NCBI RefSeq assembly: GCF_011045215.1
Contig: NZ_CP049201.1
DNA from: Escherichia coli
GTDB lineage: Bacteria; Pseudomonadota; Gammaproteobacteria; Enterobacterales; Enterobacteriaceae
Length of the DNA: 64,000 nucleotides
Strand: one strand, 5' to 3'
A program made the translations under genes and the position numbers. Positions 22,317 to 52,051 of this stretch are shown one piece after another. Position 1 is the stretch's first letter. The number at the start of each line of letters is the position of its first letter. Below the pieces are notes generated by a model. That model made no database searches, was not told where the DNA came from, and saw only the letters and a program-made list of their open reading frames with translations.

Positions 22317-22346
22317 ATGCAGGCATAAAAATTGGGGGAGGTGCCT

Positions 22347-24623: not shown

Positions 24624-24647
24624 TCTGATTGTTAAGTAGGTTGGTGA

Positions 24648-24681
24648 AGTCCGTAATCTCGAAAGAGGTTACGGACTTTTT
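24648..24681 (+). terminator. Rho-independent terminator of clpA
   Basis: Hairpin agtccgtaa / ttacggact followed by TTTTT. Confidence 0.75.
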
Positions 24682-24836
24682 ATTTATGGGGTGGAGGAGG
24701 TTCAGACCCTTTTTTTGATGATGATGGTTAGTTGTTGATAATTAGTCCTGCTGGAAGGTAAGGATAAAAAAGGGTGGCAGCAGGAGAATGAGATGGTTTT
24801 GCTTTATTAACAACGGGCTAAACGTGTAGTATTTGA

Positions 24837-24984
24837 GTTCACTGCCGTACAGGCAGCTTAGAAAAATTGTCGGCGCATTTTCCCATTAGTTGCAAAGTTC
24901 ACTGCCGTACAGGCAGCTTAGAAATTCACAGGTAACATACTCCACCCGCCCACCATGTTCACTGCCGTACAGGTAGATAAAATG
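24837..24984 (+). CRISPR. Orphan type I-F-like CRISPR mini-array (3 repeats, 2 spacers)
   Basis: 28-bp repeat GTTCACTGCCGTACAGGCAGCTTAGAAA at 24837-24864 and 24897-24924; degenerate third copy at 24957-24984; two 32-bp spacers; AT-rich leader-like sequence upstream; no cas genes in window. Confidence 0.85.
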
Positions 24985-25041
24985 CGAAAAAAAAGCTCGT
25001 ACTTTCGTTCGAGCTCTTCTTTAAATATGGCGGTGAGGGGG
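24982..25041. repeat. att-like direct repeat copy 1 (tRNA-Ser 3' end plus terminator)
   Basis: 25028-25046 is the reverse complement of the last 19 nt of tRNA-Ser(GGA), preceded by hairpin plus A-run (a minus-strand terminator); the 60-bp unit recurs at 25161-25220. Confidence 0.7.
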
Positions 25042-25160
25042 GGATTGACTCGCTTCGCTCGCCCTGCGGGCAGCCCACTCACTGCGTTCGTGGTCTGTCC
25101 AACTGGCTGCGCCAGTTGTCGAACCCCGGTCGGGGCTTCTCACCCCCCCTGGAGTGCATT

Positions 25161-25220
25161 ATGCGAAAAAAAAGCTCGCACTTTCGTACGAGCTCTTCTT
25201 TAAATATGGCGGTGAGGGGG
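25161..25220. repeat. att-like direct repeat copy 2 (island left junction)
   Basis: Near-identical to 24982-25041 (2 mismatches); the tRNA-like match is shorter (about 14 nt); lies directly upstream of the integrase gene. Confidence 0.7.
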
Positions 25221-25380
25221 ACCGCCTGAAATAAATCTGACTTAATCCAGGGGTGTTATATAATTTCATTATAAACAATGTATTACACTTTTTGTTGTCC
25301 GATATTATCTAATGTATTCTTAGTGAAGCGAGAGACTAATGGCATACTGGATGGCATACCAGAGTGACGGGAATTAGCGT

Positions 25381-26583
25381 ATGGCAGTATTGACGGATAC
25401 GAAAGCAAGACATATCAAACCTGATGACAAACCATTGCCCCATGGGGGAATTACCGGACTGACCCTTCATCCTTCTTCAGTAAAGGGGCGGGGGAAATGG
25501 GTTTTTCGTTATGTAAGTCCGGTGACACAAAAAAGACGTAATGCTGGATTGGGAACTTACCCAGAGGTCAGTATTGCTGAAGCTGCACGTACTGCCCGGA
25601 TAATGCGAGAGCAACTTGCTGCAGGTGATGATCCTCTGGAGATTAAAAAGGCTGAATCTGAGAAAGTCGTTATCCCAACATTTGCCGATGCAGCCAGGCG
25701 TGTACATGCAGAACTGTCTCCTGGATGGGAAAATCCAAAGCATGTAAGGCAGTGGTTATCGACGCTTGAGAATTACGCGTTTCCTCAACTGGGAGCAAAA
25801 ACGCTGGATTCGATTACGGCTGCGGACGTGGCAGAAACATTGCGTCCAGTCTGGTTAACCTTGTCAGAAACGGCAAGCCGGGTTAAACAGCGCATTCATG
25901 TTGTTATGCAGTGGGGATGGGCGCACGGTTTTTGTGTGGCAAATCCTGTTGATGTGGTTGACCATTTGCTTCCTCAGCAGACAAGAGGACGTGATGAACA
26001 CCAACCCGCAATGCCCTGGAGGCAGTTACCGCTTTTTGTGGCGACCAGTGTGTATAGTGATGAACCTTATAATGTTACCCGCGCACTGTTATTAATGGTG
26101 ATACTTACAGCAACTCGCTCGGGCGAAGCCAGGGGAATGCGCTGGGCTGAAATTGATTTTCATAAGCGGGTATGGACTATACCTGCAGAAAGAATGAAAG
26201 CTAGGCTACAGCATCGTGTTCCTTTATCCCGGCAGGCTATTTACATTCTGGAAAATATACGTGGCCTGCATGATGAACTGGTGTTCCCTTCACCCAGAAA
26301 GCAGCAGATCCTTTCCGATATGGTGTTGACAAGTTTTCTGCGTAAAAAGAAAGCCGTCAGTGACATTCCGGGGCGAGTTGCCACGGCACATGGTTTTCGC
26401 TCAACATTCAGGGACTGGTGTAGTGAACAGGGGTATTCGCGGGATCTGGCGGAAAGGGCGCTCGCTCATACGCTGAAAAATAAGGTTGAGGCGGCATATC
26501 ATCGCACTGATCTACTGGAGCAGCGTGTACCGATGATGCAGGCATGGGCGGATTATGTGATGTCTCAAATTGTGAATAAATAA
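25381..26583 (+). CDS. Tyrosine recombinase, P4-type integrase family
   Basis: 400-aa ORF; N-terminal arm-binding-like region and C-terminal catalytic region (AHGFRSTFRDW...LAH...Y); adjacent to att repeat. Confidence 0.85.
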   Translation: MAVLTDTKARHIKPDDKPLPHGGITGLTLHPSSVKGRGKWVFRYVSPVTQKRRNAGLGTYPEVSIAEAARTARIMREQLAAGDDPLEIKKAESEKVVIPTFADAARRVHAELSPGWENPKHVRQWLSTLENYAFPQLGAKTLDSITAADVAETLRPVWLTLSETASRVKQRIHVVMQWGWAHGFCVANPVDVVDHLLPQQTRGRDEHQPAMPWRQLPLFVATSVYSDEPYNVTRALLLMVILTATRSGEARGMRWAEIDFHKRVWTIPAERMKARLQHRVPLSRQAIYILENIRGLHDELVFPSPRKQQILSDMVLTSFLRKKKAVSDIPGRVATAHGFRSTFRDWCSEQGYSRDLAERALAHTLKNKVEAAYHRTDLLEQRVPMMQAWADYVMSQIVNK

Positions 26584-34941: not shown

Positions 34942-35715
34942 TTAAGTGGTTAAAGCTCTAATGCTAAAAGAATGCAATATTGGTAGAGAGTTTTTTGAGC
35001 ACCATGACAGATTTTCTTTACTCAGTATTTCATCAATAACAGACTTAGCAAATGGAATGGTGAGCAAGAATGAAGCTTTTTTATCTTTATTTGGAACTAT
35101 GCGGTTACCACCATTTACCCAATGTGCTTCAAGTCTGACATTTAGATCTTGCCATTTTACACCTTTTCGAACACGTTCTTTTTTTAATGAATAGAAAAAA
35201 GTTGATTTACCATTTGGTGTCGGGTGGTTATCCATTAACATTAGCATAAGAGGGATTCCCCAGTCAGGCATATAGCTATAATGCCAGATCCCAAAACTAT
35301 CCGCGATCCTGACCATCCGAATGAATGATTTTTGATCAAGCTTCCCTTCACCTCCCCTTAATGCTCTACAAACAACCCAGGCCCGATAGAGGTTATCAAA
35401 TTGCATGAATTGATTTCGGCGAGATACTGCAATTTCTGCTGAAGCAGAGCGTTCATTACCTGAAAAACCAGAAAAACGTTGAGATCTTGCGCTTAGGGGA
35501 CAGAACTCTTTATTTTCTGGTGAAGCGGAATGAGAGAATCTGGGGCTATAATCAGGATTGGGAGTGACTAATCCGCTATCATGGACAGGTTTCTCGCATG
35601 AGATACAACGTAATGGTGGGTAGTCATCTCGTGATATACCCTTAACTTTTTGTGCATATGCATCAATACTGATTTCAATCCAATAACCTTTTTCCAGAAC
35701 TTCAGCTTTATTCAT
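34942..35715 (-). CDS. Hypothetical 257-aa protein
   Basis: Uninterrupted ORF with AT-rich upstream region; no recognised domain. Confidence 0.45.
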   Translation of the reverse strand: MNKAEVLEKGYWIEISIDAYAQKVKGISRDDYPPLRCISCEKPVHDSGLVTPNPDYSPRFSHSASPENKEFCPLSARSQRFSGFSGNERSASAEIAVSRRNQFMQFDNLYRAWVVCRALRGGEGKLDQKSFIRMVRIADSFGIWHYSYMPDWGIPLMLMLMDNHPTPNGKSTFFYSLKKERVRKGVKWQDLNVRLEAHWVNGGNRIVPNKDKKASFLLTIPFAKSVIDEILSKENLSWCSKNSLPILHSFSIRALTT

Positions 35716-36022
35716 AATGTGTTGCCTCTGATATTGTTCATGTGATTATTGATAATAATAGATTACAGATAAAAAAGAAGAAATATGTATTTAAATCTTG
35801 TATTACAATGTATATATACAATTCAATCAAAAATTAGTGTTTTTAATCTCATGGCATAATCAGAAAACAGCAGAACGGGGTATTTGTTTTAATGGCGCCT
35901 CGATAAAAATTGAGATAACAGTTGCAGTTTAAAACACCTCTATTTCGTGGTTCTGAATATAGAGGCTTTACGATTTATTAAAATATTACTAAAATATGTT
36001 CATATTCCGATGCACAGACCTT

Positions 36023-36418
36023 TCACTTCTGCTTTTTCTCATTTTTGTCAGTTGTAGACTCAGTTTTTTTACGTTTTAACTTTAATATCATCTTTCCATT
36101 GCTAAATTCAATTTCTTCGTAATCGCGGAAAACAGTAATAACCAGAGCAATACCAATGGATGCTGCAGCAATAATAACAGCGATATCAAGTCCGGATAAT
36201 GCAGCTAAAGAACTAACAGCTAAAACAGAACCTCCACCAGTGAGTGGAATAGTAGCACAAGTTGCGATCATGGCAGCAATAACAACACCACTTACTTTTG
36301 TTACAGCCTTTGCTTTTTTAATTTTATTTGCTAACTCTCCTTCAATAATTATAATTTCAGCTCTGCTGTTTTGAGCTTTTTCGAGTTCATCCTTCGATCT
36401 TACAGTAAATTCAGCCAT
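36023..36418 (-). CDS. Hypothetical small membrane protein (131 aa)
   Basis: Central long hydrophobic segment with charged N- and Lys-rich C-termini; hairpin cctctat...atagagg downstream. Confidence 0.45.
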   Translation of the reverse strand: MAEFTVRSKDELEKAQNSRAEIIIIEGELANKIKKAKAVTKVSGVVIAAMIATCATIPLTGGGSVLAVSSLAALSGLDIAVIIAAASIGIALVITVFRDYEEIEFSNGKMILKLKRKKTESTTDKNEKKQK

Positions 36419-36677
36419 AATTATCCTGGTCTTGTAACATTTATGCCATCTTAAGTACTTTTATTTAGAGCGTTAACACGCTCCGCAGTCTATTAAACGC
36501 AACCGCAATAAAAATTAATGTATTTTACCAATCGTAGTCAACTAAAAGTTTCTTAATACCCTGAACGCTACATCCCATACTTCTACTACGATTTGAGCAA
36601 CATTTTGGTATTGACACTGCAGTTTTCCCAATGAAATATGGGCTTATTCAGCTTTTATTGTTTCCTGAATCTATATT

Positions 36678-37301
36678 ATGCGTACACGAATTGATTATCT
36701 GGTGAATAAATACTGTTTTACAGAACTGAATGAATCTCCACGTCTTCGTCGGCAGTGGCAGGATGTTCTGGATGAGTGCCGGCAGACAGGGGCCGGGCCA
36801 GAAGAACGGCTGCGTATTGCACTGCTGAATGTGGATTACGTCACCAGTTTTGAGCTGCCTTTTCGCTTGCTGCTTACCCGGACACCACAACTGATTGCCG
36901 CGCTGCGTGAAGAATGGGGCATCAGCCAGAAAAATGTGGTGTTCAACGATAAACGGTTTGGCTGCGTGTACAGCCTGAAGGCCAGCCTTTCGGGTGTGCC
37001 GGATACATTCCGGTATCATCTGTCTCACCGTATTCGTCGCGTGGTTGGGAATGAAAACACATCATTGCCATATCAGCAGGTTGCCCGGGAAGTGAAAGCG
37101 TCCCGTGAACGGCTGAAGTATGCGCTGGAAGCAGGTTTACTGGTGACCGCACTGGACGGGCTGTTCTGGTCTGGCAGTCAGCGTATTGCGGCTGATGTCC
37201 TGAGATTAAGACAGAGCGGAATGCCGGTAGTGACAACGAATGTGGAGGTGCACGATAACCTGACGGGAACAACCCGCAAAGTGCCGGCATACCATCTCTG
37301 A
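36678..37301 (+). CDS. Hypothetical 207-aa protein
   Basis: ORF with balanced composition; no recognised motif. Confidence 0.4.
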   Translation: MRTRIDYLVNKYCFTELNESPRLRRQWQDVLDECRQTGAGPEERLRIALLNVDYVTSFELPFRLLLTRTPQLIAALREEWGISQKNVVFNDKRFGCVYSLKASLSGVPDTFRYHLSHRIRRVVGNENTSLPYQQVAREVKASRERLKYALEAGLLVTALDGLFWSGSQRIAADVLRLRQSGMPVVTTNVEVHDNLTGTTRKVPAYHL

Positions 37302-37387
37302 TACGACCATCAGGGGGGGCTCTGGCAGCAGTATGACATTCTTTATACTTTTACCCGTGCCTGAAAACATGTGCTAAGGAAACGGGA

Positions 37388-37621
37388 ATGGCAAGGTCCG
37401 ATTACGATATTATCAATCTGTCTCTGGAACATGAACTGAATGAGTGGCTGGCAGAGAGAGGTTATGCCGGACTGGCGGATAACCGGAATCGCCTGGCAGA
37501 AGTTGTTACCCGCAGATTGCAGGACAGCTTTTATATAAACGTTTCCTGGGATGCGCTGAACACGGCATACAGTGAACACCCGGAGTGGTTTTCTGGGCTT
37601 GTCTTCGGGGATGAGAATTAA
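37388..37621 (+). CDS. Hypothetical 77-aa protein
   Basis: Short ORF directly downstream of the 207-aa gene; weak support. Confidence 0.3.
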   Translation: MARSDYDIINLSLEHELNEWLAERGYAGLADNRNRLAEVVTRRLQDSFYINVSWDALNTAYSEHPEWFSGLVFGDEN

Positions 37622-37673
37622 AAAGTGGATTATGCTGCCATCAGGCAGTGTGATTGCCGGCAGGAATTTCGTT

Positions 37674-37865
37674 TTATTCTGTTTCTTCCCGGGGTTCGGG
37701 TTTGAATTTTCCTGGAAAGTTGTACATTGGCCGCATACAGGGATGTGGATAGCCGTCCCGCATAAATACCACCCGGGTTTCCTCAACACTGGTTACGGTG
37801 ACAAGCGCACCATGATCGTCTCTGTATCGCTGACCGACTTTGGGTAACGGGATATCTTCAGACAT
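37674..37865 (-). CDS. Small DUF4222-like protein (63 aa)
   Basis: Short ORF; family assignment by recalled similarity only. Confidence 0.3.
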   Translation of the reverse strand: MSEDIPLPKVGQRYRDDHGALVTVTSVEETRVVFMRDGYPHPCMRPMYNFPGKFKPEPREETE

Positions 37866-38231
37866 AACTTCCGGAACAATGTTGTTTTACACGATATTGT
37901 TGTTATTACCCGGTACGTTGCGGATGCTTTTTCGGGGTATGTTAATTTATTGTTTTGTTGATTTTTTTTTGCTTTTTGTGCATTCCTGTCACTCTGATTT
38001 CTGCCTTTTACCTCACCTCCCTTTCTTCTGACTTTCGCTGAGAACCGCTCAGATTCTGTACTGCATAAACTTCAATGATTTTAATCAAAAATCACTTTTT
38101 TCAGTGTTGACTGGCTGTATTTGAAGCATCTTACGGAATAATTTTCTGTCGTTTTTTGTTCTCCGTGGTTATAAGTTTTGCAATATGCTGCTTTTGCGAT
38201 ATTAGTTGGAATAAATAACTACGTGATAACT

Positions 38232-38291
38232 ACATATCGATCGATATGTCTGCAATATTGAGAATTTTCAGATCTTCATTCTATAATGATC
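38232..38291. promoter_or_regulatory. GATC-containing palindrome and candidate promoter upstream of cdiB
   Basis: Perfect 18-bp palindrome ACATATCGATCGATATGT (38232-38249); GATC at 38239, 38271, 38288; TATAAT at 38283-38288 with TTGAGA 19 bp upstream. Confidence 0.35.
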
Positions 38292-38456
38292 AAAATTAAA
38301 CCAATTCAGAGTTGACAAATTTATTACTCAACATTCTGGTACCGGTTGATGCGGGTAAATACCGGAAGGGCGGTAGCGTACCATCGCAAAACATGGTGGG
38401 AGGTATCGTCAGGAGGCTGGTGATTGTTGGTATGACATGAATAAAAGGTTTTTCGT

Positions 38457-40196
38457 TTGACTGGAAAATTATGTTGCAGGAACGAGAGGGCTGAGGAACA
38501 AAGCGTATTCCGGCGCTGTCCGTCCTTGCTGTCACTGACACTGATGTCTGTTTTATTATCGCCTTTATCTCTTCAGGCCGCGGATGTCCGGCGTAGCGGA
38601 GATAATGCATTTATCATTCAGCAGCAGCGTCAGGAAGCCCTTGAGCAACAACTGACGCCTTCAGCCCCTGATGTTCGCCTTTCTGCACCTGGCTCTTTTG
38701 CCCGTAAGATTAATTTTCCTGTTGAAACGCCCTGTTTTCAGATTAAACAGACGGAACTGGAGGGGGCTGATGCGTTACCACACTGGCTGCCTTTACAAAA
38801 AATCGCCAACGGGGCGGTCGGGCATTGCCTGGGGGCGAAAGGAATTAATCTGCTGATGAGTACATTGCAGAACCGTCTGGTCGATCATGGTTATGTCACC
38901 ACCCGTGTTCTGGCACCTTCGCAGGATTTAAAAAGCGGTATCCTCCGGCTGGTTGTTATTCCCGGTGTTGTGCGACATGTGCGTCTGACACCGGACAGTG
39001 ATGACTATATTCAGTTGTATTCCTCATTCCCGGCACACGAAGGTTCTCTGCTGGATTTACGGGACATTGAGCAGGGGCTGGAGAATATGCAACGACTGCC
39101 GGGTGTGCAGGCTGATATGGAAATTGTACCCGGTGAGCAGCCAGGGGAAAGTGACATTCTTATTACCCGCAAACAGGACAAATACTGGCGACTGGGGTTT
39201 TCGCTTGATGATTCAGGTACCCGCAGCACAGGGCGTTATCTCGGTGGTATAACATTTTCTCTGGATAATCCTTTTTCCCTGAGTGACCTGCTGTATGTTT
39301 CTGCCACCCGTAATTTTCCACATTACGGGGGTAAGGGCAGTAAAAACTACACGGCCCATTACTCTGTGCCTTTCGGCTACTGGCAGTTTTCCGTCACCGC
39401 CAGTGATTACGATTACCATCAGACGGTAGCTGGTGCGGTTGAGGATTACCAGTACAGTGGCGAGAGTCAGAATCTGGGTATGCAGCTGAGCCGGGTACTG
39501 CACCGTAACGGGACGCAGAAAACGGTGCTGACCTACGATGTTCAGGCCCGCAGGTCGCGTAACTACATTAATGATACGGAAATCCAGGTGCAGCGCCGGC
39601 AGACAGCGGCCTGGCGACTTGGGCTGCAGCACCGTCATTATATTTCTCAGGCCACACTGGATGCTGGTGTCAGCTGGCAACGGGGAACCCGCTGGTTTGG
39701 TGCACAGCCGGCGCCGGAAGAAACGTTCGGTGAGGCAACGGCGCTCAGTAAGATCCTGCAGTTGAATGCATCCTTTAATCTGCCCTTTACCCTTGCAGGG
39801 CAGCCCTTCAGTTATTCCTTCCGGTATCAGCGCCAGCTGAGCAATACCCCGCTGACCCCACAGGAACAGTTTGCCATCGGTAACCGCTGGACGGTTCGTG
39901 GTTTTGACGGGGAGCGAACGCTGAATGCCAGTAACGGCTGGTATATCCGCAACGACCTGGCCTGGCGTACGCCACTGCCGGAGCAGGAGTTATATCTGGG
40001 AATGGATTACGGCGAGGTGGGGGGAGCCGGCAGTGAATACCTGGTGGGACGTCATCTGGCTGGTGGTGTTGTGGGGCTGAGGGGGCAACTGTTCAGTACG
40101 GATTATGACGTTTTCATCGGTCGTCCGTTTTCAAAGCCGGCGGGTTTTATGACGAGTGATGTGACAGCCGGTTTTAATCTGTTCCGGGATTTCTGA
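38457..40196 (+). CDS. cdiB: Two-partner secretion outer-membrane transporter CdiB (TpsB family); start uncertain (TTG at 38457)
   Basis: Signal peptide ending [13 protein letters not shown]-like N-region, C-terminal beta-barrel ending in aromatic residue; directly upstream of cdiC-cdiA. Confidence 0.85.
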
Positions 40197-40205
40197 GAAA
40201 GTTTC

Positions 40206-40733
40206 ATGCGTAACGGGAAATATGACGTTCTGAGTCCCCTGTATTCCGGTGAGCCGGTCAATGAGGCGGAAGTCCTGGGGGCGGCCGTCTGGTTGTGGAT
40301 GCACTCCCCCCTGCATCGTGATGCGCCACTGCATACCCTGCCGGACCTGCTGCTGCCGGTGATTAAGCACCGACAGTATGTGGTGGCAACAGAGCAGGGG
40401 CGACCGGTTTTCTTCATGAGCCAGGCCTGGCTCAGCCCGGAGGCAGAGGCGCGTTATCTTACGCAGCCGGCAATTCTCATGCCTCAGTCGGACTGGAACA
40501 GCGGCGACCGGATGTGGGTCTGTGACTGGATTGCCCCTTTTGGACATACCCCGGATATGAGTCGTCTTGTCCGGCAGGATATTTTTCCCCGTCTGTGCTG
40601 GCGTTCGCTGTACCACCGTGGGCAGCAGACCGGGTTGCGGGTGATGAATTTCCGGGGTGCACAGGTCAGTCGTGAAGAGGCGCGCCAGTGGCGTGTGCAG
40701 CACCCGCTTGCTGTGGATGTGCCGGAGAGATAA
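40206..40733 (+). CDS. cdiC: HlyC/RTX-family toxin-activating lysine acyltransferase (CdiC-like)
   Basis: Motifs WLWMHSPLHRD and GDRMWVCDWIAPFG closely parallel HlyC (WLWASSPLHRN, GDRKWFIDWIAPFG); 175 aa. Confidence 0.8.
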   Translation: MRNGKYDVLSPLYSGEPVNEAEVLGAAVWLWMHSPLHRDAPLHTLPDLLLPVIKHRQYVVATEQGRPVFFMSQAWLSPEAEARYLTQPAILMPQSDWNSGDRMWVCDWIAPFGHTPDMSRLVRQDIFPRLCWRSLYHRGQQTGLRVMNFRGAQVSREEARQWRVQHPLAVDVPER

Positions 40734-40748
40734 GTCAGGTTTATCAGA

Positions 40749-43700
40749 ATGAACAAAAATTGTTACCGCATTATTTTTAACAAAGCCCGGGGAATGCTGA
40801 TGGTGGTGGCAGATATTGCCCGTTCCGGTCGCGCCGGTGCATCACCCTCCTCCCGTACAGGATATCCACGCAGGCAACGTATCTGCCGTGTCACATCGCT
40901 TGCATTCTCCCTGTGGCTGGCCTCGGGGATGGTGCATTCTGTCAGTGCTGCAGGCATTGTCGCAGACCATGGCGCACCGGGGCATCAGCAGCCCACGATT
41001 ACGCAGACAGCCAGCGGCATTCCTCAGGTCAATATCCAGACACCTTCTGCAGGTGGGGTATCGCACAATACTTACAGTCAGTTTGATGTCAGTCATCAGG
41101 GTGTCATTCTGAATAACTCGCATAAAAATGTGCAGACCCAACTGGGCGGCATGGTTGCCGGTAACCCGTGGCTGGCGAAGGGAGAGGCCCGAATCATTCT
41201 TAATGAAGTGAACAGTCGCAATCCCAGCCAGTTGAACGGTTTTGTTGAGGTTGCCGGGAAAAAGGCGCAGGTGGTGATTGCGAACCCGGCCGGCATCAGT
41301 TGCGACGGGTGCGGTTTTATTAATGCGAACCGGGCCACGCTGACCACGGGGCAGCCTCAGATGAAAAACGGCAGTCTGACCGGATTCAGTGTTGAACGTG
41401 GTGAGATTCAGATTACGGGCAAAGGGATGGATGCCTCGCGCACGGATTATACCGATATCATTGCCCGGTCTGTGAAGATTAATGCGGGTATCTGGGCGCA
41501 GGACCTGAAAGTGACCACCGGACGTAACAATGTGGATATTGCACACGGGCAGACTGAGAAAAAAGCCGCTGATGCCTCTTCGCAGCCACAGGTGGCGCTG
41601 GATGTGTCCAGCCTTGGTGGAATGTATGCCGGAAAAATTCGCCTTGTCGGTACGGAAACGGGGGTGGGTGTTCGTAACGCCGGTCATATTGGTGCGCAGG
41701 CAGGGGCGGTTACCCTGACGGCTGACGGACGAATTGAAAACAGTGGCAGTATCAGTGCGAAAACGGATGTGCATCTGGTGACAACCCGGGAGCTGCATAA
41801 CAGTGGTTCTGTTTATGCGGGGCAGGATACGCAGATACAGAGTGATGGTGTATTCACCCATACAGGCTCTGTGGCATCACGTCGCAACACCCGGATTCAG
41901 ACAGCGCGTCTGACCGGCGGTGAGCGGAGTCTGCTGGCCGCCGGGGTGAAAGATGACGGACGTCTGGCGGCAGCGGGCAACCTGACTGTCAGTACCACCG
42001 GCGAACTGGCGGCACACGGACAGGTTCTGTCCGGTGGGGACATGCAACTGAAGGGGCAGGGGCTGGATTTAAGCAACAGCCGGATACAGGGACAACATAC
42101 TGAGCTGGATGCAGGCAGCGGAAATCTGTTCACGCAAAATGCGCAACTGAGTGCCGGTACGCTTTCCGCCCGGACTGCCGGGCAGTTCAGCAATAATGAC
42201 GGCACGATAAATGCCGACACACTGCAGATATCAGCACAGAGCCTGTCAAACCACAGGGGTAAACTGATTCAGACGGGAACAGGGGATTTTTCACTGAACC
42301 TGCCGGGAGGTGTGGATAACCGGGAAGGGCTGCTTGCGGCAAATGGCGCGGTGCGCCTGGATGCACTGAGCCTTGATAATCGCAGGGGGAAAGTGCAGGC
42401 GGCGCAGTCAGGTAGTCTGCAGGTGAGGACAACCGGCGCCGTGGATAACCAGCAGGGAAGTCTGATTGCCAGCCGTGACATCCTGATTAATACACAGGCA
42501 CTGAATAACGACAACGGACTGATTTCAGCTGCTGCCGGAACGGGCAGGATAAAAACACAGCAGGCTGTCAGCAATACTGAGGGACGAATGGAGTCCGCCG
42601 GCAGGCTGGATATTTCGGCAGGGAGTCTGAATAACCACCAGGGTACGGTGGTGTCTGACGGGCTGTCCGTGACGCTGGATGGTGCGCTGGATAATACGTC
42701 CGGCAGACTGCTTTCACAGAAAACGCTGTCTGTGTCAGGCAGCGAACTGGTCTCTGATGATGGTCTGATTCAGTCCGGCAGTGACATGACGCTGGATGTA
42801 CAGGACGGGGTTCTCAGTAACCGGAACACGAAAACACGGGGTGGTATCAGCAGCGCCGGTACCCTGACAGTACGGGCCGGTATGCTGAATAACCAGCAGG
42901 GATTTATGGCGGGTCAGAAGGATATGACCCTGAACGCCGGAACGCTCGATAACCGTCAGGGCGTGCTGGGGAGTCAGGCGTCATTACAGATATCGTCAGG
43001 TACGCTGATGAACCAGAAAGGCGCACTGAAGGCCGGGACGGATATGTTGCTGAGTGGTGGCGATGTCAGTAATCAGGAAGGGACGCTTGCCGCCGGCGGG
43101 GACCTGAATGCGCACCTGAATGTGCTGGAAAATCAGCAGGGGACGGTGGTCAGCAACGGTAACAGCAGGCTGGATGTCACCCGCTCTGATAATCAGGGCG
43201 GCAGACTGGTGGCACAGCAGTCACTGACCCTTTCCTCGACGGATATCAGCAATGATGCAGGTGGTCTGATACAGAGCGGTGCCACACTGAATCTCCGTGC
43301 TGACACACTGAGCAACCGTAACAGTGGTGACCGGGGCGGGGTTATCAGTCAGGGCCCGATGACGCTGAATGCCGGCACACTGGACAGCACTGCCGGTGTG
43401 CTTTTGTCGGGAGATGCGCTGTCCCTGACTGCAGGCGTGGTTAACAATACATCCGGTCAGGTGGTGGCGAATGGTCAGATTGTGGCGACCGGTCTGCCCG
43501 GCCGGAACAGTCTGGCGCTGAACAATCAGTCCGGTCTTATTCAGGGGAAAGGCATCAGCATTAATAGCGCAGGCCGGACGCTGGATAACAGAGGGGGTAC
43601 GCTGAACAGCCTGCAGGAACTGACTGTCAGTACCGGAGCAATGGATAACCGGGGCGGGACCGTGGGGGCGAAAACGACAGCTGACCTGAGCACCACCTCG

Positions 43701-46700
43701 CTGGATAACCGTGAGGGTGGCCGGCTGGTCAGTGAAGGTGAACTCCGTCTGCATACGGGAGGCCTGCAGAACAGCCACGGACAGATACAGTCTGTGGGCG
43801 ACATTCTGTTCGACAGTGTACGGGGCGTTGTGGACAACGTCTCTGGTCTGATTCGCAGTGGTTCTGCCATTACGCTGAACGCCCTGCAGTTTATCAATCG
43901 CCACACGCAGAATACCGGCCAGGGGCTGGAAGCGCAGACAATACACATCACGACGCAGGACCTTGATAACCAGGAGGGCAGTATTCTGGCAGACAGGGCG
44001 CTTACGGTTATGGCAGACAGGACGCTCAGTAATAATGATGGCGTGCTCTCTTCCGGCGCGACATTGTCTGTCAGTGGCCGTCAGCTGGCGTTTTCGAACC
44101 GTGACGGCGTGGTTAAGGCCGGGCAGTCAGTCTCTGTGGATGTCGGTCAGCTTGGTGGTGACGGGAAACTGCTTTCGCCGGGCGATATAACGCTGAAAAG
44201 TAACACAGCGTTCAGTAACAGTGGTCAGACCATTGCAAACGGAAACCTTACGCTTTCCGTTAATGGCGATGTCTCTAATACCGGCAGCCTGCTGGCAGGC
44301 AGCCGGCTTGACCTGAACAGCATCCGCCTTGAAAACACAGAGAAAGGTGAAATCAGTGCCGGGCAGACCTGGCTTAACGTGACGGACACACTGCTGAACC
44401 GTGGGCTGATTGACGGGAAATATACGCATCTTCAGGCGAACACCCTGACGAATTCCGGTACCGGGCGAATCTACGGCGATGCTGTTGGTGTCAGCGCTGC
44501 CACATTTAATAATCTGGATGAAAATGGCGTGGCGGCGACGCTGGCCGGACGTGAGCGTGTGGACCTGGGGGTACAGACCCTGAATAACCGGACGCACAGC
44601 CTGATTTACAGTGCAGGTGATATGCATATCGGTGGCATGCTGGATGCGAATGGCGCCGCCACGGGGAAAGCCGGTGTACTGAATAATCACAGTGCCACGA
44701 TTGAAGCCGCCGGTTCCCTGACACTGAGTGCCGGGCAAATCAATAACGTCAATGACCATTTCACCACGGAGCGCGTGGTGGTCTCCACGGAAAAGGTGAC
44801 TGAGTATCAGCATCGCGGGTCAGATGTCCGCTGGAATGCAAAAGATGAGGGGGTGTTCATTGATAACAACTCCTCTGATGGACTGCTGAACCTGAACACG
44901 CCGGATGATACCGGACATAACAACGACCGGTTCACAAAATATGAATACACCCGTACCGTGGAGGAAACCCGGGTAAAAGACTCCGACCCGGGGAAAATAC
45001 TGTCCGGTGCCGGCATGACGGTTGTGGCAGACAAACTGCTTAATGACAAGAGCCAGGTGGTTGCAGGTGGTCTGCTGGATATGCAGGCCGGTGATGTGGA
45101 AAACGTCAGTGTCAGCGGAGAGCGCCATGTTACTGATAAAGGGACATCCACATATTATTACCGGATAAAAAGAAAAAATAAAAATGACAGGCAGGGGGAA
45201 AGAATTTCCCCTTACGAGCCGCCCCCCGTCATTCAGACCATCACGCTGAAGCCGGGAGAGCTCACCAGCCACGGACAGGTTCAGGGCAGCCAGGTCACGC
45301 TTTCTCCCCTGAAGCCACAGGGAACGGATGTACAGACAGGACTGACCGGAAATGTGGATGCGACAGTAGCCGTTACTGACCGGATACCGCTTCGCCCGGT
45401 GGTGTCAGCCGGTGAACCGGTCATTCTGTTGCCGGGGCAGCAGTTTGAAGTCAGCGCACCTCAGGGCAGTATCCATGTTGCCGGGCCGGATACCCGTCTG
45501 CCGGACAGCAGCCTGTTTAAAACAAATCCGGCAGTGAATGTGCCATATCTGGTTGAAACGGACCCGCGTTTTACGAACCAGAAGACGTGGCTGGGCAGTG
45601 ATTACATGCAGAAGGCGTTTTCTCAGAACGGGGATAACATGCTCAAACGCCTGGGGGATGGTTTTTACGAACAGCGTCTGATTCGTGAGCAGGTTGTCGC
45701 TCTGACCGGGCAACGGTACCTGGACGGATACAGTAATGATGAAGAGCAGTTTAAGGCGTTAATGGATGCGGGTATTGCATTTGGTAAGCAATACAACCTG
45801 ACACCAGGTGTGGCGCTGACTGCTGAGCAGATGGCGTTACTGACCGGTGATATTGTCTGGCTGGTTAACACCACGGTGACACTGCCGGACGGCAGCACGC
45901 AGACGGTTCAGGTACCTCAGGTGTATGCCCGTGTAAAACCCGGTGATGTGAACAGTGCCGGTGCGCTGATTGCCGGCAGGGACATGGTGATGAAGCTGGA
46001 TGGTGACCTGTTTAACAGCGGTAAACTGGCCGGGAAGCAGGCCGTGCAGCTCAGTGCAGAAAACATTCACAACCAGGCCGGCACCATTCAGGGAGCAAAT
46101 GTCAGCCTGACGGCCCGGACGGATATTAACAGTACCGGCGGGCTGCTGCAGGCCACGGACAGCCTGCTGGCGATGGCCGGACGGGATATCAGTCTGACCA
46201 CCACCACCCGTACGGCACAGCGCGACGCCGGGCAGAACCATTTTGAACGTACCAGTATCGACAGTGTGGCCGGCGTGTATGTGCAGAACGACCAGGGAAG
46301 ACTGGTGCTGCAGGCCGGACGGGATATGAATCTGACGGCGGCAACGGTGGTGAATCAGGGTAAGGACAGCCTGACACAACTCAGTGCCGGCAGGGATATG
46401 ACGCTTTCCACGGTGACCACATCCGCGCAGGACAATATTACCTGGGATAAAAATAATCGTCTGTCGCAGGGCGTCACACAGAATACGGGCAGCACACTTG
46501 CCGGTAACGGTGATGTCACGCTGACCGCCGGACGGGATATGACGTCACAGGCGGCATCGCTGTCAGCTCAGAAAGGCCTGGCCCTGATGGCGGGTCATGA
46601 CGTGACGCTGACCGGTGCACAGAATACCCGCTCGCTGGATGAATACCATAAAGTGACCGGCAACAGCGGGATGTTATCGAAAACCACCACTACCACGCAT

Positions 46701-49700
46701 GATGTCACTGACCGCCGGACCATGACGGGCAGTGAACTGAACGGGGATACGGTCAGTATCGGTGCCGGACATAATCTGAACGTCACGGGCAGCAGTGTGG
46801 CCGGGGATAACCGTGTCTCCCTGGCTGCCGGAAATAACCTGAGTATCGGAACGCTGACAGAAAGCAACCGTGAAACACACCTGAAACAGGAGAAAAAATC
46901 CGGACTGATGAGCTCCGGAGGTGTGGGATTCAGCGTGGGCAGCCAGAGTCTGAAGGTCACGGACACCGCAACAGACACCACGCAGAAAGGCAGCACGGTG
47001 GGGAGTGTTCACGGTGATGTTTCCCTTCAGGCAGGTAACCGGTTGACCGTCAACGGCTCTGACCTGATTGCCGGCAGGGACATGGCACTCAGTGGTAAGG
47101 AGGTCAGCATTACCGCCGCCACTGACCGGCATGTGCAGACACATACGGTGGAGCAGAAAACCTCCGGTCTGACGCTTGCCCTGTCCGGCACAGCGGGCAG
47201 CGCCCTGAACACGACGGTGGAGACCGTACAGGCGGCGAAATCTGCCGGAAACAGCCGGCTTGAAGCCCTGCAGGGGGTGAAGGCCGCGCTCTCGGGGGCT
47301 CAGGCCGTGCAGGCCGGACGACTGGCAGAAGCACAGGGCAACCAGAAAGAGAATAACAATACCGTGGGTATCAGCCTCTCTTACGGCAGCCAGTCTTCGA
47401 AATCAGAACAGCAGTCAGAGCAGACGGTGGCGAAGGGCAGTACACTGACCGCAGGTAATAACCTCAGTATTCAGGCCACCGGCTCCGGCGTGAAGGGCGT
47501 GGATGGTGACCTGACGATACAGGGCGGTCAGATAAAGGCCGGGAACAACGTTCTGCTGCAGGCAAACCGTGACGTGAATCTGGTATCAGCAGAAAACACG
47601 TCAAAGCTGGAAGGAAAGAACACATCCAGTGGTGGCAGCGTGGGTGTCGGTATCGGTGTGGGGCCCGGAGGGCCTGGTTTCAGTCTGTCAGCCAGCGCAA
47701 ACCAGGGTAAGGGCAGTGAAAAAGGCAACGGTACCACCCATACAGAAACCACGGTGGATGCGGGAAACCGGCTGACCATTATCAGCGGGCGGGACACCAC
47801 GCTTACCGGCGCGCAGGCTGGCGGTGAAACGGTGAAAGTGGATGCCGGTCGTCATCTGACACTGACCAGTGAGCAGGACAGTGACCGTTATGACAGTAAG
47901 CAGCAGAATGCCAGCGCCGGAGGCAGCTTCACTTTCGGGTCCATGAGCGGTTCGGCGAGTGTGAACCTCAGCCGGGATAAAATGCACAGTAACTACGACA
48001 GTGTACAGGAGCAGACGGGGATTTTTGCCGGCAGGGGCGGGTTTGATGTCACCACCGGACAGCATACGCAACTGAACGGTGCGGTGATTGCGTCCACGGC
48101 AACGGCAGATAAAAACAGGCTGGATACCGGCACACTGGGCTTCAGTGACACTGAAAACCGGGCTGACTTTAAAACGGAACATCAGAGTGCAGGGCTCAGT
48201 ACCGGTGGCAGTGTTGCCGGAAATTTCCTGGGGAACATGGCAAACAATCTGCTGGTCGGTGCAAATCATGAAGGCCATGCGGACAGTACCACGCAGTCGG
48301 CTGTGTCTGCCGGGAATATCACTATCCGGGATACACAGAGCCAGAAACAGGATGTGGCAGACCTGAACCGTGACGTTGCGCATGCAAACCAGACGCTGTC
48401 CCCCATCTTTGACAGGGAAAAAGAGCAGCAGCGGTTGCAGCAGGCGCAACTCATTGGTGAGATTGGTAACCAGGTGGCAGATATTGCCAGAACGGAAGGA
48501 CAGATAGCCGGTGAGAAAGCGAAGCGGGACCCGGCAGCACTGAATCAGGCCCGCGCAGAGCTTGAGGCAGCAGGAAAACCGTACACGGAACAGGATGTGG
48601 CACAGCGGGCCTACAATAACGGTATGGCAGCCTCCGGTTTTGGAACGGGAGGCAAATACCAGCAGGCGATACAGGCCGCAACGGCAGCGGTACAGGGACT
48701 GGCCGGCGGTAATCTGAGTGCAGCCCTGGCAGGTGGTGCAGCGCCGTATATTGCTGAAATTATCAAACAGACCACCCCGGACGGTGCGGGGCGTGTGGCA
48801 GCTCATGCAGTAGTGAATGCCGCCCTGTCTCTGGCACAGGGTAAGAATGCCCTTGCCGGTGCTGCAGGTGCAGCCACCGGCGAGGTGGTGGGAATGATAG
48901 CCACACAGATATACGATAAATCGGTGAGTGAACTGAGTGAGACAGAGAAACAGACGGTCTCCACGCTGGCAACGGTTGCTGCCGGCCTGGCCGGTGGTCT
49001 GGTGGGAGACTCGGGGGCTTCAGCGGTAGCCGGCGCACAGTCAGGTAAGACGACTGTTGAGAATAATTATCTTAGCGTGTCTGAAAAGACAGAGCTTGAG
49101 ATAGCAAAACAGAAGCTTAAAAACAGTAAAGATCCGGCAGAGCGTGAAAAGGCACAGCAGAAATATGATGCATTGCTTGAAAAAGATATCAGCAGTGATA
49201 AGGCAGTAATCGCTGCGTGCAGTAACGGACAGGCAGCCAGCGCAGCTTGTGCCGGTGAAAGACTGAAGGTTATTGCAGCTAAAGGAGGTTATGAAACCGG
49301 ACACTACAATAACCAAGTCAGCGATATGTATCCGGATGCTTACGGGCAGATAGTAAACCTGCTGAATATCACCAGTGTTGATGCACAAAATCAACAACAG
49401 GTGAAGGATGCGATGGTGAACTATGCCATGGTGCAGTTTGGGGTCGATAGGGCGACGGCACAGGCATACGTTGAAACTTATGATGGAATGAAAGTTGTAG
49501 CTGCTTCGATGGCACCAGTAATAGGTGCTGCGGCGGCCAGTAAGATAGAAGTTCTGGCTGGTAAACAACGCTTGTCTAATAGTTTCGAGGTTAGCTCACT
49601 TCCAGATGCAAATGGGAAAAATCACATCACGGCTGTAAAAGGTGATGCTAAAATACCTGTCGATAAGATTGAACTATATATGCGTGGTAAAGCTTCTGGT

Positions 49701-50069
49701 GACCTTGATTCTTTGCAAGCAGAATATAATTCTTTAAAAGATGCAAGGATTAGCAGCCAAAAAGAATTTGCAAAAGATCCAAACAATGCTAAAAGGATGG
49801 AAGTATTAGAAAAACAAATCCATAATATTGAGCGTTCTCAAGATATGGCTCGTGTATTAGAACAAGCAGGTATAGTGAATACTGCCAGTAATAACAGCAT
49901 GATAATGGATAAGTTATTGGACTCAGCTCAGGGGGCTACGTCTGCAAATAGAAAAACATCTGTTGTTGTATCAGGGCCTAACGGTAACGTAAGGATTTAT
50001 GCTACATGGACAATATTACCTGATGGCACGAAAAGACTTTCAACTGTTAATACGGGGACATTCAAATGA
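40749..50069 (+). CDS. cdiA: Contact-dependent inhibition exoprotein CdiA (3106 aa) with VENN-delimited C-terminal toxin
   Basis: Extended signal peptide MNKNCYRIIFNKARGMLMVVADIA, TPS domain (ANPAGISCDGCGF), long FHA-type repeat tracts, VENN at 49056-49067, AT-rich C-terminal 333 aa. Confidence 0.9.
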   Translation: MNKNCYRIIFNKARGMLMVVADIARSGRAGASPSSRTGYPRRQRICRVTSLAFSLWLASGMVHSVSAAGIVADHGAPGHQQPTITQTASGIPQVNIQTPSAGGVSHNTYSQFDVSHQGVILNNSHKNVQTQLGGMVAGNPWLAKGEARIILNEVNSRNPSQLNGFVEVAGKKAQVVIANPAGISCDGCGFINANRATLTTGQPQMKNGSLTGFSVERGEIQITGKGMDASRTDYTDIIARSVKINAGIWAQDLKVTTGRNNVDIAHGQTEKKAADASSQPQVALDVSSLGGMYAGKIRLVGTETGVGVRNAGHIGAQAGAVTLTADGRIENSGSISAKTDVHLVTTRELHNSGSVYAGQDTQIQSDGVFTHTGSVASRRNTRIQTARLTGGERSLLAAGVKDDGRLAAAGNLTVSTTGELAAHGQVLSGGDMQLKGQGLDLSNSRIQGQHTELDAGSGNLFTQNAQLSAGTLSARTAGQFSNNDGTINADTLQISAQSLSNHRGKLIQTGTGDFSLNLPGGVDNREGLLAANGAVRLDALSLDNRRGKVQAAQSGSLQVRTTGAVDNQQGSLIASRDILINTQALNNDNGLISAAAGTGRIKTQQAVSNTEGRMESAGRLDISAGSLNNHQGTVVSDGLSVTLDGALDNTSGRLLSQKTLSVSGSELVSDDGLIQSGSDMTLDVQDGVLSNRNTKTRGGISSAGTLTVRAGMLNNQQGFMAGQKDMTLNAGTLDNRQGVLGSQASLQISSGTLMNQKGALKAGTDMLLSGGDVSNQEGTLAAGGDLNAHLNVLENQQGTVVSNGNSRLDVTRSDNQGGRLVAQQSLTLSSTDISNDAGGLIQSGATLNLRADTLSNRNSGDRGGVISQGPMTLNAGTLDSTAGVLLSGDALSLTAGVVNNTSGQVVANGQIVATGLPGRNSLALNNQSGLIQGKGISINSAGRTLDNRGGTLNSLQELTVSTGAMDNRGGTVGAKTTADLSTTSLDNREGGRLVSEGELRLHTGGLQNSHGQIQSVGDILFDSVRGVVDNVSGLIRSGSAITLNALQFINRHTQNTGQGLEAQTIHITTQDLDNQEGSILADRALTVMADRTLSNNDGVLSSGATLSVSGRQLAFSNRDGVVKAGQSVSVDVGQLGGDGKLLSPGDITLKSNTAFSNSGQTIANGNLTLSVNGDVSNTGSLLAGSRLDLNSIRLENTEKGEISAGQTWLNVTDTLLNRGLIDGKYTHLQANTLTNSGTGRIYGDAVGVSAATFNNLDENGVAATLAGRERVDLGVQTLNNRTHSLIYSAGDMHIGGMLDANGAATGKAGVLNNHSATIEAAGSLTLSAGQINNVNDHFTTERVVVSTEKVTEYQHRGSDVRWNAKDEGVFIDNNSSDGLLNLNTPDDTGHNNDRFTKYEYTRTVEETRVKDSDPGKILSGAGMTVVADKLLNDKSQVVAGGLLDMQAGDVENVSVSGERHVTDKGTSTYYYRIKRKNKNDRQGERISPYEPPPVIQTITLKPGELTSHGQVQGSQVTLSPLKPQGTDVQTGLTGNVDATVAVTDRIPLRPVVSAGEPVILLPGQQFEVSAPQGSIHVAGPDTRLPDSSLFKTNPAVNVPYLVETDPRFTNQKTWLGSDYMQKAFSQNGDNMLKRLGDGFYEQRLIREQVVALTGQRYLDGYSNDEEQFKALMDAGIAFGKQYNLTPGVALTAEQMALLTGDIVWLVNTTVTLPDGSTQTVQVPQVYARVKPGDVNSAGALIAGRDMVMKLDGDLFNSGKLAGKQAVQLSAENIHNQAGTIQGANVSLTARTDINSTGGLLQATDSLLAMAGRDISLTTTTRTAQRDAGQNHFERTSIDSVAGVYVQNDQGRLVLQAGRDMNLTAATVVNQGKDSLTQLSAGRDMTLSTVTTSAQDNITWDKNNRLSQGVTQNTGSTLAGNGDVTLTAGRDMTSQAASLSAQKGLALMAGHDVTLTGAQNTRSLDEYHKVTGNSGMLSKTTTTTHDVTDRRTMTGSELNGDTVSIGAGHNLNVTGSSVAGDNRVSLAAGNNLSIGTLTESNRETHLKQEKKSGLMSSGGVGFSVGSQSLKVTDTATDTTQKGSTVGSVHGDVSLQAGNRLTVNGSDLIAGRDMALSGKEVSITAATDRHVQTHTVEQKTSGLTLALSGTAGSALNTTVETVQAAKSAGNSRLEALQGVKAALSGAQAVQAGRLAEAQGNQKENNNTVGISLSYGSQSSKSEQQSEQTVAKGSTLTAGNNLSIQATGSGVKGVDGDLTIQGGQIKAGNNVLLQANRDVNLVSAENTSKLEGKNTSSGGSVGVGIGVGPGGPGFSLSASANQGKGSEKGNGTTHTETTVDAGNRLTIISGRDTTLTGAQAGGETVKVDAGRHLTLTSEQDSDRYDSKQQNASAGGSFTFGSMSGSASVNLSRDKMHSNYDSVQEQTGIFAGRGGFDVTTGQHTQLNGAVIASTATADKNRLDTGTLGFSDTENRADFKTEHQSAGLSTGGSVAGNFLGNMANNLLVGANHEGHADSTTQSAVSAGNITIRDTQSQKQDVADLNRDVAHANQTLSPIFDREKEQQRLQQAQLIGEIGNQVADIARTEGQIAGEKAKRDPAALNQARAELEAAGKPYTEQDVAQRAYNNGMAASGFGTGGKYQQAIQAATAAVQGLAGGNLSAALAGGAAPYIAEIIKQTTPDGAGRVAAHAVVNAALSLAQGKNALAGAAGAATGEVVGMIATQIYDKSVSELSETEKQTVSTLATVAAGLAGGLVGDSGASAVAGAQSGKTTVENNYLSVSEKTELEIAKQKLKNSKDPAEREKAQQKYDALLEKDISSDKAVIAACSNGQAASAACAGERLKVIAAKGGYETGHYNNQVSDMYPDAYGQIVNLLNITSVDAQNQQQVKDAMVNYAMVQFGVDRATAQAYVETYDGMKVVAASMAPVIGAAAASKIEVLAGKQRLSNSFEVSSLPDANGKNHITAVKGDAKIPVDKIELYMRGKASGDLDSLQAEYNSLKDARISSQKEFAKDPNNAKRMEVLEKQIHNIERSQDMARVLEQAGIVNTASNNSMIMDKLLDSAQGATSANRKTSVVVSGPNGNVRIYATWTILPDGTKRLSTVNTGTFK

Positions 50070-50780: not shown

Positions 50781-51716
50781 GTTGAGAATAACTTTTTGAC
50801 CGCGGATCAGATCGATAGCTTTGCGGCAAAAGCAAAAGGGTGTGAAGTACGTGGCGACTGCAAACAGATTGTAAAGGAGATGGAGGAGCTCAGCCTTAAG
50901 CAACAGCAGGAAATGATAGCTGTCTGCGCAACAAACCCTGCGGCCTGCAAAGAGAAATTCGGCGATATACCAGCTAAAGGAATGCTTGTACGAGAAGCGA
51001 TAGATCGTGTGTTAGGTGCAGATGTACCGTCTGCAATGAAGAATGATATGTCTTCGTTGTTAGCTCAGCAGATCGAAGCGGAAGGTGTTGTTACCAGTAC
51101 TGAATTTGCCTGTCAGCTACAAAATCGTTACGGTATAGACAAGCAACAGGCTGAAATCCTTGCCGTCGCAGCATTGGGAGCAGTGACAGGTGGGATGGGG
51201 AAATCAGGTACTTCAACGGTAACTAAAAACATCGTTGTGGTTAATTCAGGTAAGAAAGGGGCCTGGAATCAAGCAATGAATAAGCCGGAACCGAATACCG
51301 TTTATAAGGTCGATGGAAATAAAACATACCAGACTGATGCATTGGGAAGAACTAGTTCAGTTGAGGGTATACTAGTTGCTTCGAAAAGCGACAGAAACAC
51401 TTATCAGCAATGCAAGGCCGGGAAATGTGGTAGCTCTGGTGATGAAGGTGGTCATTTAATTGCCAGTATTTTTAATGGTCCTGGCGAAAAACTCAATCTT
51501 GTTCCTATGGATGGCAACCTGAATAAAGGTGTATGGAAACAGATGGAAAACACATGGGCTAATGCTTTGAAAGATGGCAAACAAGTTAATGTTAAAATAG
51601 AACCTGTTTACACTGGGGAGAATAAGCGTCCTGAAAGCTTTAGTGTAACATACTCTATTGATGGAGGCCGTCCTGTTATCAAAGACATCAGCAACACACC
51701 TGGAGGGGTAAAATGA
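50781..51716 (+). CDS. Orphan cdiA-CT module 1 (VENN-prefixed toxin domain, activity unknown)
   Basis: VVENN at 50781-50792 without upstream CdiA body; about 310 aa follow, with a His-containing segment GDEGGHLIASIFNG. Confidence 0.6.
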   Translation, partial: VENNFLTADQIDSFAAKAKGCEVRGDCKQIVKEMEELSLKQQQEMIAVCATNPAACKEKFGDIPAKGMLVREAIDRVLGADVPSAMKNDMSSLLAQQIEAEGVVTSTEFACQLQNRYGIDKQQAEILAVAALGAVTGGMGKSGTSTVTKNIVVVNSGKKGAWNQAMNKPEPNTVYKVDGNKTYQTDALGRTSSVEGILVASKSDRNTYQQCKAGKCGSSGDEGGHLIASIFNGPGEKLNLVPMDGNLNKGVWKQMENTWANALKDGKQVNVKIEPVYTGENKRPESFSVTYSIDGGRPVIKDISNTPGGVK

Positions 51717-52051
51717 ACGAATTAGATGATCTGCATAATAAAATAGGTCAGTTATTAGTGGATGCCGGTCCTGCTAATGCGATGAAGATCATTGCTCGTG
51801 CTAAATTATCACTAGATGGTGAGTCATGTGAGTATGAGTATGATTATCTTGATCAAGAGGGAGATGAAGATTGGTTCGTTCCTGATAAGTTAGCCAGTCA
51901 CGATCTTAGGCTACTGTTAGTTAAAATGAGGGATTTTTACATCCGAAATAATATGACTAACGGGAAACCAGCATGGATAGGTTGTGAAATAATCGTTGAT
52001 ATACCAGAAGAAAAAATTAGCATAAACTTTCAATATGATGATGAACTATGA
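51713..52051 (+). CDS. Orphan cdiI module 1 (putative immunity protein)
   Basis: 112-aa acidic ORF; start overlaps the orphan toxin stop (ATGA). Confidence 0.55.
   Translation: MNELDDLHNKIGQLLVDAGPANAMKIIARAKLSLDGESCEYEYDYLDQEGDEDWFVPDKLASHDLRLLLVKMRDFYIRNNMTNGKPAWIGCEIIVDIPEEKISINFQYDDEL

Follow-up and report, generated by a model that had tools for sequence, protein, structure and literature searches.

Three small genes upstream of cdiB

The window, that is, the whole stretch of 64,000 nucleotides of Escherichia coli DNA analysed here, contains a block of three small ORFs that is followed, across an intergenic region, by a CDI operon. The genes and the segments between them are:

36678-37301, plus strand: 207-aa ORF with ATG start, ECs1377 family
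37388-37621, plus strand: 77-aa ORF with ATG start, no family
37674-37865, minus strand: 63-aa ORF with ATG start, DUF4222, convergent with the 77-aa gene
37866-38070, plus strand: distal intergenic segment, common to RM11911, unalignable to the O157, O104 and RM14721 copies, variable between islands
38071-38303, plus strand: proximal promoter region, homologous to the DNA 5' of tssB in sci1-type T6SS loci
38304-38456, plus strand: cdi-specific 5' leader, conserved in cdi-type loci and absent from T6SS-type loci
38457-40196, plus strand: cdiB, TTG start, Pfam ShlB/POTRA
40206-40733, plus strand: cdiC, Pfam HlyC-type acyltransferase (111 bits)
40749-50069, plus strand: cdiA, Pfam TPS (196 bits), Fil_haemagg and PT-VENN (74 bits)

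The ORFs of 207 and 77 aa on the plus strand and of 63 aa on the minus strand that the sequence-only reading had placed upstream of cdiB are reproduced by the ORF list at exactly the same coordinates. Judged from their sequences, all three are genuine genes, since the family HMM scores, the CDS annotation, the intact frames and the third-position bias put them beyond chance. The 207-aa protein matches the ECs1377 family of NCBIfam (NF052300) with 316.2 bits (E 5.7e-95, model positions 1-190 on residues 16-205), the curated cut-off being 190 bits, and the 63-aa protein matches Pfam DUF4222 (PF13973) with 81.5 bits (E 3.1e-23, positions 1-52 of 53, gathering score 27). All three genes are annotated as CDS in RefSeq relatives, and no stop codon was found in any of the ORFs across 6-7 diverged copies. 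Relative to the T6SS-type locus L003, the substitutions at the three codon positions number 6/8/26 in the ECs1377 gene and 2/2/12 in the DUF4222 gene, while the 77-aa ORF, with 0/3/7, has the weakest coding signal of the three.

That the ORFs are chance frames or decayed pseudogenes without a product is extremely improbable, and for the 207-aa and 63-aa genes it is effectively refuted, because their family scores lie far above the cut-offs and the 207-aa protein has both a confident fold prediction and full-length homologues throughout the Enterobacterales. One could hold in its favour that the 207-aa ORF lacks an obvious Shine-Dalgarno sequence, that the third-position bias of the 77-aa ORF is weak and that several database variants are frameshifted, but the frames are intact in the diverged copies. 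The 77-aa ORF is preceded by AAGGAAA, which resembles a Shine-Dalgarno sequence. Two longer minus-strand ORFs that overlap the three genes (36648-37028 and 37343-37789) were also considered, and were rejected as shadow ORFs; neither has a family match.

The absence of a recognisable function, which had also been stated from the sequence alone, holds true: across Pfam, NCBIfam, PHROG and PADLOC, the matches of the three proteins are limited to function-less families, and sequence searches of the PDB, the PHROGs and PADLOC gave no functional lead for them. The PADLOC defence models matched neither the three proteins nor the two upstream neighbour proteins, and Rfam had no match within 36300-38600. 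The 63-aa protein matches PHROG 1343 and PHROG 285, and its relatives are function-less phage proteins. For the 77-aa protein there was no match in Pfam, NCBIfam, PHROG or PADLOC, and its AF2 model is all-helical with low confidence (pLDDT 65.8). Its relatives fall into 141 protein clusters; among the 120 listed, all are at least 66% identical and nearly all come from E. coli, and the gene appears to be found almost only in Escherichia.

More can be said about the 207-aa protein. Its N-terminus, MxxRIDY, is kept in homologues as distant as 25-42% identity, which indicates that translation does begin at the ATG at 36678. The protein is predicted to bind DNA through two winged-helix domains arranged in tandem, in that the model contains a three-helix bundle with a beta-hairpin wing that superposes on solved wHTH domains. 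The nearest known folds are winged-helix regulators of the MarR/ArsR type and tandem winged-helix proteins such as RepE, the best Foldseek E-value against the PDB being no lower than 0.16. A match to Pfam HTH_39 (PF14090; 15.5 bits, E 0.015) covers residues 168-207 only and lies below the gathering score of 21.3. The modelled fold thus suggests DNA binding, and we regard the ECs1377 protein as a mobile-element-borne putative DNA-binding protein, which may at most modulate a neighbouring promoter.

On the 5' side of the block, the ca 150 nt before the ECs1377 start (36520-36677) are well conserved in most E. coli islands (L001, L002, L003, L005, L006 and L099). In the window, as in E. albertii and in strains C5 and A20, this stretch is replaced by strongly diverged sequence up to the ATG, and the promoter and 5' UTR of the window copy of the gene may differ from those in most islands. 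Further upstream, on the minus strand at 34942-36418, what had been called unknown cargo consists of a family-less 257-aa protein and a 131-aa predicted membrane protein, the sole match of which is the function-less PHROG 25580; Pfam gave no family for the E. coli genes upstream of the block. The region 22332-26583 holds a ClpA-like gene (22332-24623) and then a P4-type integrase gene (25381-26583), and ARAGORN found no tRNA anywhere in the window.

The promoter region and the T6SS-to-cdi junction

The CDI operon belongs to class IV, with a lysyl-acyltransferase cistron, cdiC, between cdiB and cdiA, and with both TPS and VENN in CdiA. Over 38457-50069 it is 96.8% identical to the RM11911 locus. 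The three genes cdiB-cdiC-cdiA are predicted to be driven by a promoter at 38238-38292, the elements of which are:

38238-38292, plus strand: promoter core, with sigma-70 elements and three GATC sites
38239-38242: GATC-III, in CGATCG/ATCGAT (PvuI/BspDI), 5' of the -35
38258-38263: -35 element TTGAGA, 18-nt spacer to the -10
38271-38274: GATC-II, in AGATCT (BglII/Hpy188I), between -35 and -10
38282-38287: -10 element TATAAT, with TTGAGA the best sigma-70 match of the region (11/12)
38282-38300: fur1-like box TATAATGATCAAAATTAAA, overlapping the -10, 13/19 against the Fur consensus, a count equal to the published one
38288-38291: GATC-I, in TGATCA (BclI), at the 3' edge of the -10 and inside the fur1-like box

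The three GATC sites lie within 53 nt, at spacings of 32 and 17 nt. In the published map of the EAEC promoter Psci1, the GATC sites are at positions 451/483/500; GATC-I is in a BclI site within a 13/19 fur1 box over the -10, GATC-II in a BglII/Hpy188I site and GATC-III in a PvuI/BspDI site (Brunet et al. 2011, PMC3145626; Taillefer et al. 2026, PMC13262931). The window and EAEC sci1 (T6SS-1) thus have the same flank block and the same promoter core, with the GATC spacings, the restriction palindromes, the Fur box over the -10 and the placement of G2 and G3 in common.

It is important to point out that a 13/19 Fur box and a GATC triple are not rare by chance, as the window has 26 Fur-consensus matches at 13/19 and 3 that score higher, and contains 4 GATC triples. 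What supports the identity of the promoter is therefore its homology together with the exact map of restriction sites, and on these grounds we identify the intergenic DNA 5' of cdiB as an EAEC sci1-type promoter. The best Fur-consensus matches in the window, two overlapping ones at 15/19, are located elsewhere, at 51830-51854, just 3' of an orphan CdiA-CT-like Endonuclease_NS_2 module at 50796-51716.

The block, taken as 36677-37877, is common to the window and the T6SS-type loci at 91-93% identity by blastn and alignment. For the proximal promoter region, blastn aligns 38071-38303 with L003 at 74% and 38110-38303 with L099 at 78%, the DNA between it and the block (37878-38070) being variable. 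Both promoter alignments end at 38303, that is, 16 nt past the -10 and at ca +10 from the predicted transcription start, and from there the window promoter leads to cdiB and not to the tssB (sciH) operon. T6SS-type loci (L003, L099), cdi-type loci (the window, L001) and stub-type loci (L002, L004, L097, L098) all have the 55-bp promoter core; among the loci compared, those of the BH100 and Nissle types lack it.

In the EAEC 17-2 T6SS copy, Fur binds the promoter and protects GATC-I from Dam in a Fur-dependent manner, and the behaviour of Psci1 has been explained experimentally by Fur and Dam (PMC3145626; PMC13262931). Unlike in EAEC sci1, the promoter in the window feeds cdiB-cdiC-cdiA through a cdi leader of ca 150 nt instead of feeding tssB, and outside the core it is only 74-78% identical. 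Fur and Dam may act at this copy too.

The cdi leader contains a 42-aa ORF with a TTG start (38312-38440, plus strand), which is annotated as a hypothetical protein in relatives (L001 13623-13751, L002 13620-13769). It has no match in Pfam or Rfam and is of doubtful significance; a leader peptide and an artefact of annotation are both conceivable.

Distribution of the block and of its neighbours

Of 5426 complete E. coli genomes, 2291 contain the three-gene block, and 1672 do so at a coverage of at least 80%. What follows it differs between strains. In RM14721, it lies directly 5' of an intact sci1-type T6SS with tssB, tssC, tssK, tssL, an OmpA-family gene (tagL), hcp and tssH. In O104:H4 it is followed by tssB and a truncated tssC, in RM11911 and H22 by cdiB-cdiC-cdiA, and in O157:H7 and strain H19 by a cdiB stub. 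Loci of the BH100 type have only the 207-aa and 77-aa genes, followed by a cdiB-cdiA pair without cdiC, and in those of the Nissle (EcN) type the 207-aa gene alone remains of the block.

Queries spanning the junctions were run over the same 5426 genomes at a coverage of at least 80%. The conservation of the block upstream of cdiB, which the sequence-only reading had named as a check, is seen in that the block, or at least its first gene, stands there in many genomes: the junction of the sci1-type promoter with the cdiB leader occurs in 1084, that of the 77-aa gene with cdiB in 393 and that of the ECs1377 gene with cdiB in 203. Beyond E. coli, ECs1377 homologues lie upstream of cdiB in two Serratia genomes and one Citrobacter genome. 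The junction of the sci1-type promoter with tssB was found in 191 genomes, and cdiB and cdiC are intact in 191. The class IV CDI operon is intact in ca 3.5% of the complete E. coli genomes and is present as stubs in ca 20% more. A CDI operon on the T6SS switch promoter is very widespread in E. coli, mostly in the form of decayed stubs.

Related loci were sought with an alignment of eight ECs1377 homologues. Two distant homologues, P0135 and P0159, lie on contigs of only ca 1.5 kb, too short to show their neighbours. Among 80 species-level loci with a homologue, ca 10 have tssB/tssC or cdiB/cdiA within 6 kb downstream, and these span five genera (Kosakonia, Citrobacter, Serratia, Yokenella and Escherichia), the homologue being always upstream and in the same orientation. 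The other ca 70 have housekeeping neighbours such as FocA-type transporters, MlaA, GntR/aminotransferase, DoxX and permeases. Homologues of the 207-aa protein also occur on plasmids, with 535 records at ca 66% identity, 494 of them on conjugative plasmids, in Escherichia, Shigella, Klebsiella and Salmonella. In pRM10042-1 (IncI-gamma/K1; L100 7001-7624), the one plasmid context inspected, the homologue is flanked by nuc and a DUF2569 gene, and neither T6SS nor CDI genes are nearby. The linkage to T6SS and CDI is thus strong within E. coli and mostly absent in the loci elsewhere and in this plasmid context. The identification of the plasmid homologue with YggA of R64 was rejected, as YggA is a different small protein near oriT.

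These distributions bear on the possibility that the three genes are a small unit of their own, separate from CDI (a toxin-antitoxin pair, an anti-defence system or a phage-derived superinfection module), that happened to lodge here. Both DUF4222 and the ECs1377 family have phage relatives among the PHROGs, the 77-aa gene converges with the DUF4222 gene and both are confined to Escherichia, and the ECs1377 family travels on conjugative plasmids as well, all of which would fit such a unit. The genes do not keep together, however: outside Escherichia the 207-aa homologues occur without the other two genes, and the DUF4222 gene, or both small genes, are missing from loci of the BH100 and EcN types. 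With no PADLOC match for the three proteins in addition, we consider this explanation very unlikely.

Some further observations were made on the neighbours in other genera. A DUF2913 gene (cluster c16; L059, L072, L080, L090, L093 and L095) adjoins the ECs1377 homologue, in this sample only in non-E. coli loci with tssB/tssC or cdiB/cdiA, and may be a second marker of weapon-linked flanks. A minus-strand 55-aa ORF between the homologue and tssB in Citrobacter was considered as a DUF4222 gene, which Pfam ruled out. Two entries look like contamination or mislabelling in public assemblies, namely a 422-bp "Macrococcus carouselicus" contig that is 93% identical to the E. coli gene (L074), and a "Chryseobacterium sp. 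18061" contig that shares its gene context with Citrobacter sp. 18056 (L093).

Origin of the flank and control of the CDI operon

From the sequence alone, the small genes had been proposed to be either CDI regulators or remnants of an earlier element. The latter proposal is borne out, as the block and the promoter precede an intact T6SS in RM14721 and fragments of the T6SS tail lie 3' of cdi loci, so that the element can be named as a sci1-type T6SS locus, of which the block is the usual left-hand neighbour in E. coli. The tail fragments are of late T6SS genes (ImpA_N, VasL) and are found 3' of both cdi loci and cdiB stubs, one class of stub being annotated as a POTRA fragment adjoining VasL. 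GIY-YIG nuclease and helicase genes are common to the 3' side of the cdi loci and stubs and to the tssB remnant of O104:H4. In other genera, the tssB promoters differ from that of E. coli and are therefore of no help in polarising the replacement.

Our main reading, to which we give a probability of roughly 0.6, is that the block is an inherited sci1 flank and that cdiBCAI is controlled in cis by Fur and Dam. In this scenario, cdiBCAI would have recombined directly behind the sci1 promoter at ca 38303/38304, displacing most of the T6SS genes and inheriting the 5' flank together with the promoter. The small genes would then be inherited T6SS flank and not a purpose-built CDI controller, and the transcription of cdiBCAI would depend on cis elements located between these genes and cdiB. 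Repression by Fur would take place at the box overlapping the -10, Dam methylation of the GATC inside the fur1 box would oppose Fur, and the outcome would be an iron-responsive, possibly ON/OFF, expression of the operon.

A published clone allows the contribution of the small genes to be assessed. The cdiBCAI-STEC4 locus of STEC_O31 has, like the window, the cdiB-cdiC-cdiA layout, an HlyC-family acyltransferase and a UUG start of cdiB (Halvorsen et al. 2021, PMC8510554). Cloned with its native promoter by means of primer ZR258, this class IV operon gave up to 10^5-fold target inhibition in K-12 MC1061, and deletion of the promoter region abolished the activity; the study did not include an analysis of the promoter or of the upstream genes (PMC8510554). 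In O157-type sequence, the ZR258 site was located with one mismatch at L002 13249-13271, 51 bp beyond the start codon of the DUF4222 gene. This position means that the active clone retains practically all of the intergenic region but lacks each of the three genes, and the match in the O157:H7 copy implies that the DNA upstream of the STEC_O31 cdi locus is of the O157 type. In the variable distal segment of the window, the site is absent.

By this primer mapping, the three genes are not needed for cdi activity, a conclusion that is weakened by the clone being multicopy, grown in LB and hosted by K-12, since copy number and rich medium could hide the effect of a modulatory factor and K-12 may have a homologue of its own. 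The proposal that the small genes are CDI regulators is thus not borne out: the published clone is active without them, the known control of the promoter is by Fur and Dam, and ca 70 of the 80 species-level loci have no weapon locus nearby. A non-essential, modulatory role in CDI is possible.

A specific form of such a role would see the ECs1377 protein, possibly joined by the 77-aa protein, act as a locus-linked transcription factor that tunes the downstream T6SS-1 or CDI operon. It would bind the adjacent intergenic region and, for example, oppose Fur or H-NS or bias the Dam switch. The ECs1377 gene is intact and in the same orientation 5' of cdiB in three junction architectures in E. coli, and it stands 5' of tssB or cdiB in Kosakonia, Citrobacter, Serratia and Yokenella with unrelated upstream neighbours, an enrichment at weapon loci above what simple hitch-hiking would lead one to expect. 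The published transposon screen on Psci1, moreover, took up-mutants only and would have missed an activator. More than 1,000 genomes, however, retain the gene intact next to a dead cdiB stub, most members of the family have no T6SS or CDI locus nearby, and the gene-free class IV clone is fully active in K-12. A comparison by eye of the regions upstream of tssB in E. coli and in the other genera showed no shared motif. On balance, we find a locus-linked factor of this kind rather doubtful.

One can go further and speculate that the tandem winged-helix proteins of the ECs1377 family are an unrecognised class of regulators dedicated to contact-dependent weapons, acting as the trans partner of the Fur/Dam switch. 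This we consider unlikely. If it were true, a dedicated regulator would coordinate the expression, or the ON/OFF heterogeneity, of whichever T6SS-1 or CDI operon lies behind the ECs1377 gene, which would explain why the gene is retained beside cdiB or tssB across genera and in the three E. coli junction types. In themselves, the small genes are nothing unusual for an island: they have been catalogued and are widespread, and they are uncharacterised.

Little is understood of how CDI is regulated natively in E. coli. The class IV operon lies behind the promoter to which the EAEC T6SS owes its iron-responsive and Dam-dependent ON/OFF switching. Should Fur and Dam act at the copy in the window as well, iron starvation would induce CDI, and its expression would be heterogeneous, like that of the T6SS. 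In the literature searched, no paper was found that links class IV CDI to the Fur/Dam switch promoter of the T6SS.

Finally, inheritance of the sci1 flank would account for the origin of the "HecB-like" stub and of ECs1377-1379 in O157:H7. In strain Sakai, ECs1377-ECs1378-ECs1379 (SpLE1 / OI-43, OI-48) are the same three genes in the same order, with 93.5% DNA identity to the window; the promoter and the cdiB leader are also the same, and ECs1382 is the gene called "HecB-like". Unlike in the window, where the operon is intact and the distal intergenic segment is a different one, cdiB of O157:H7 is a stub fused to a fragment of cdiA, the stretch corresponding to 39083-42055 of the window being deleted there. 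The "POTRA domain-containing protein" annotated in O157:H7 and H19 (L002 14400-14754, L098 7901-8255) corresponds to this fusion, that is, to a 626-nt 5' fragment of cdiB joined to a piece of cdiA.
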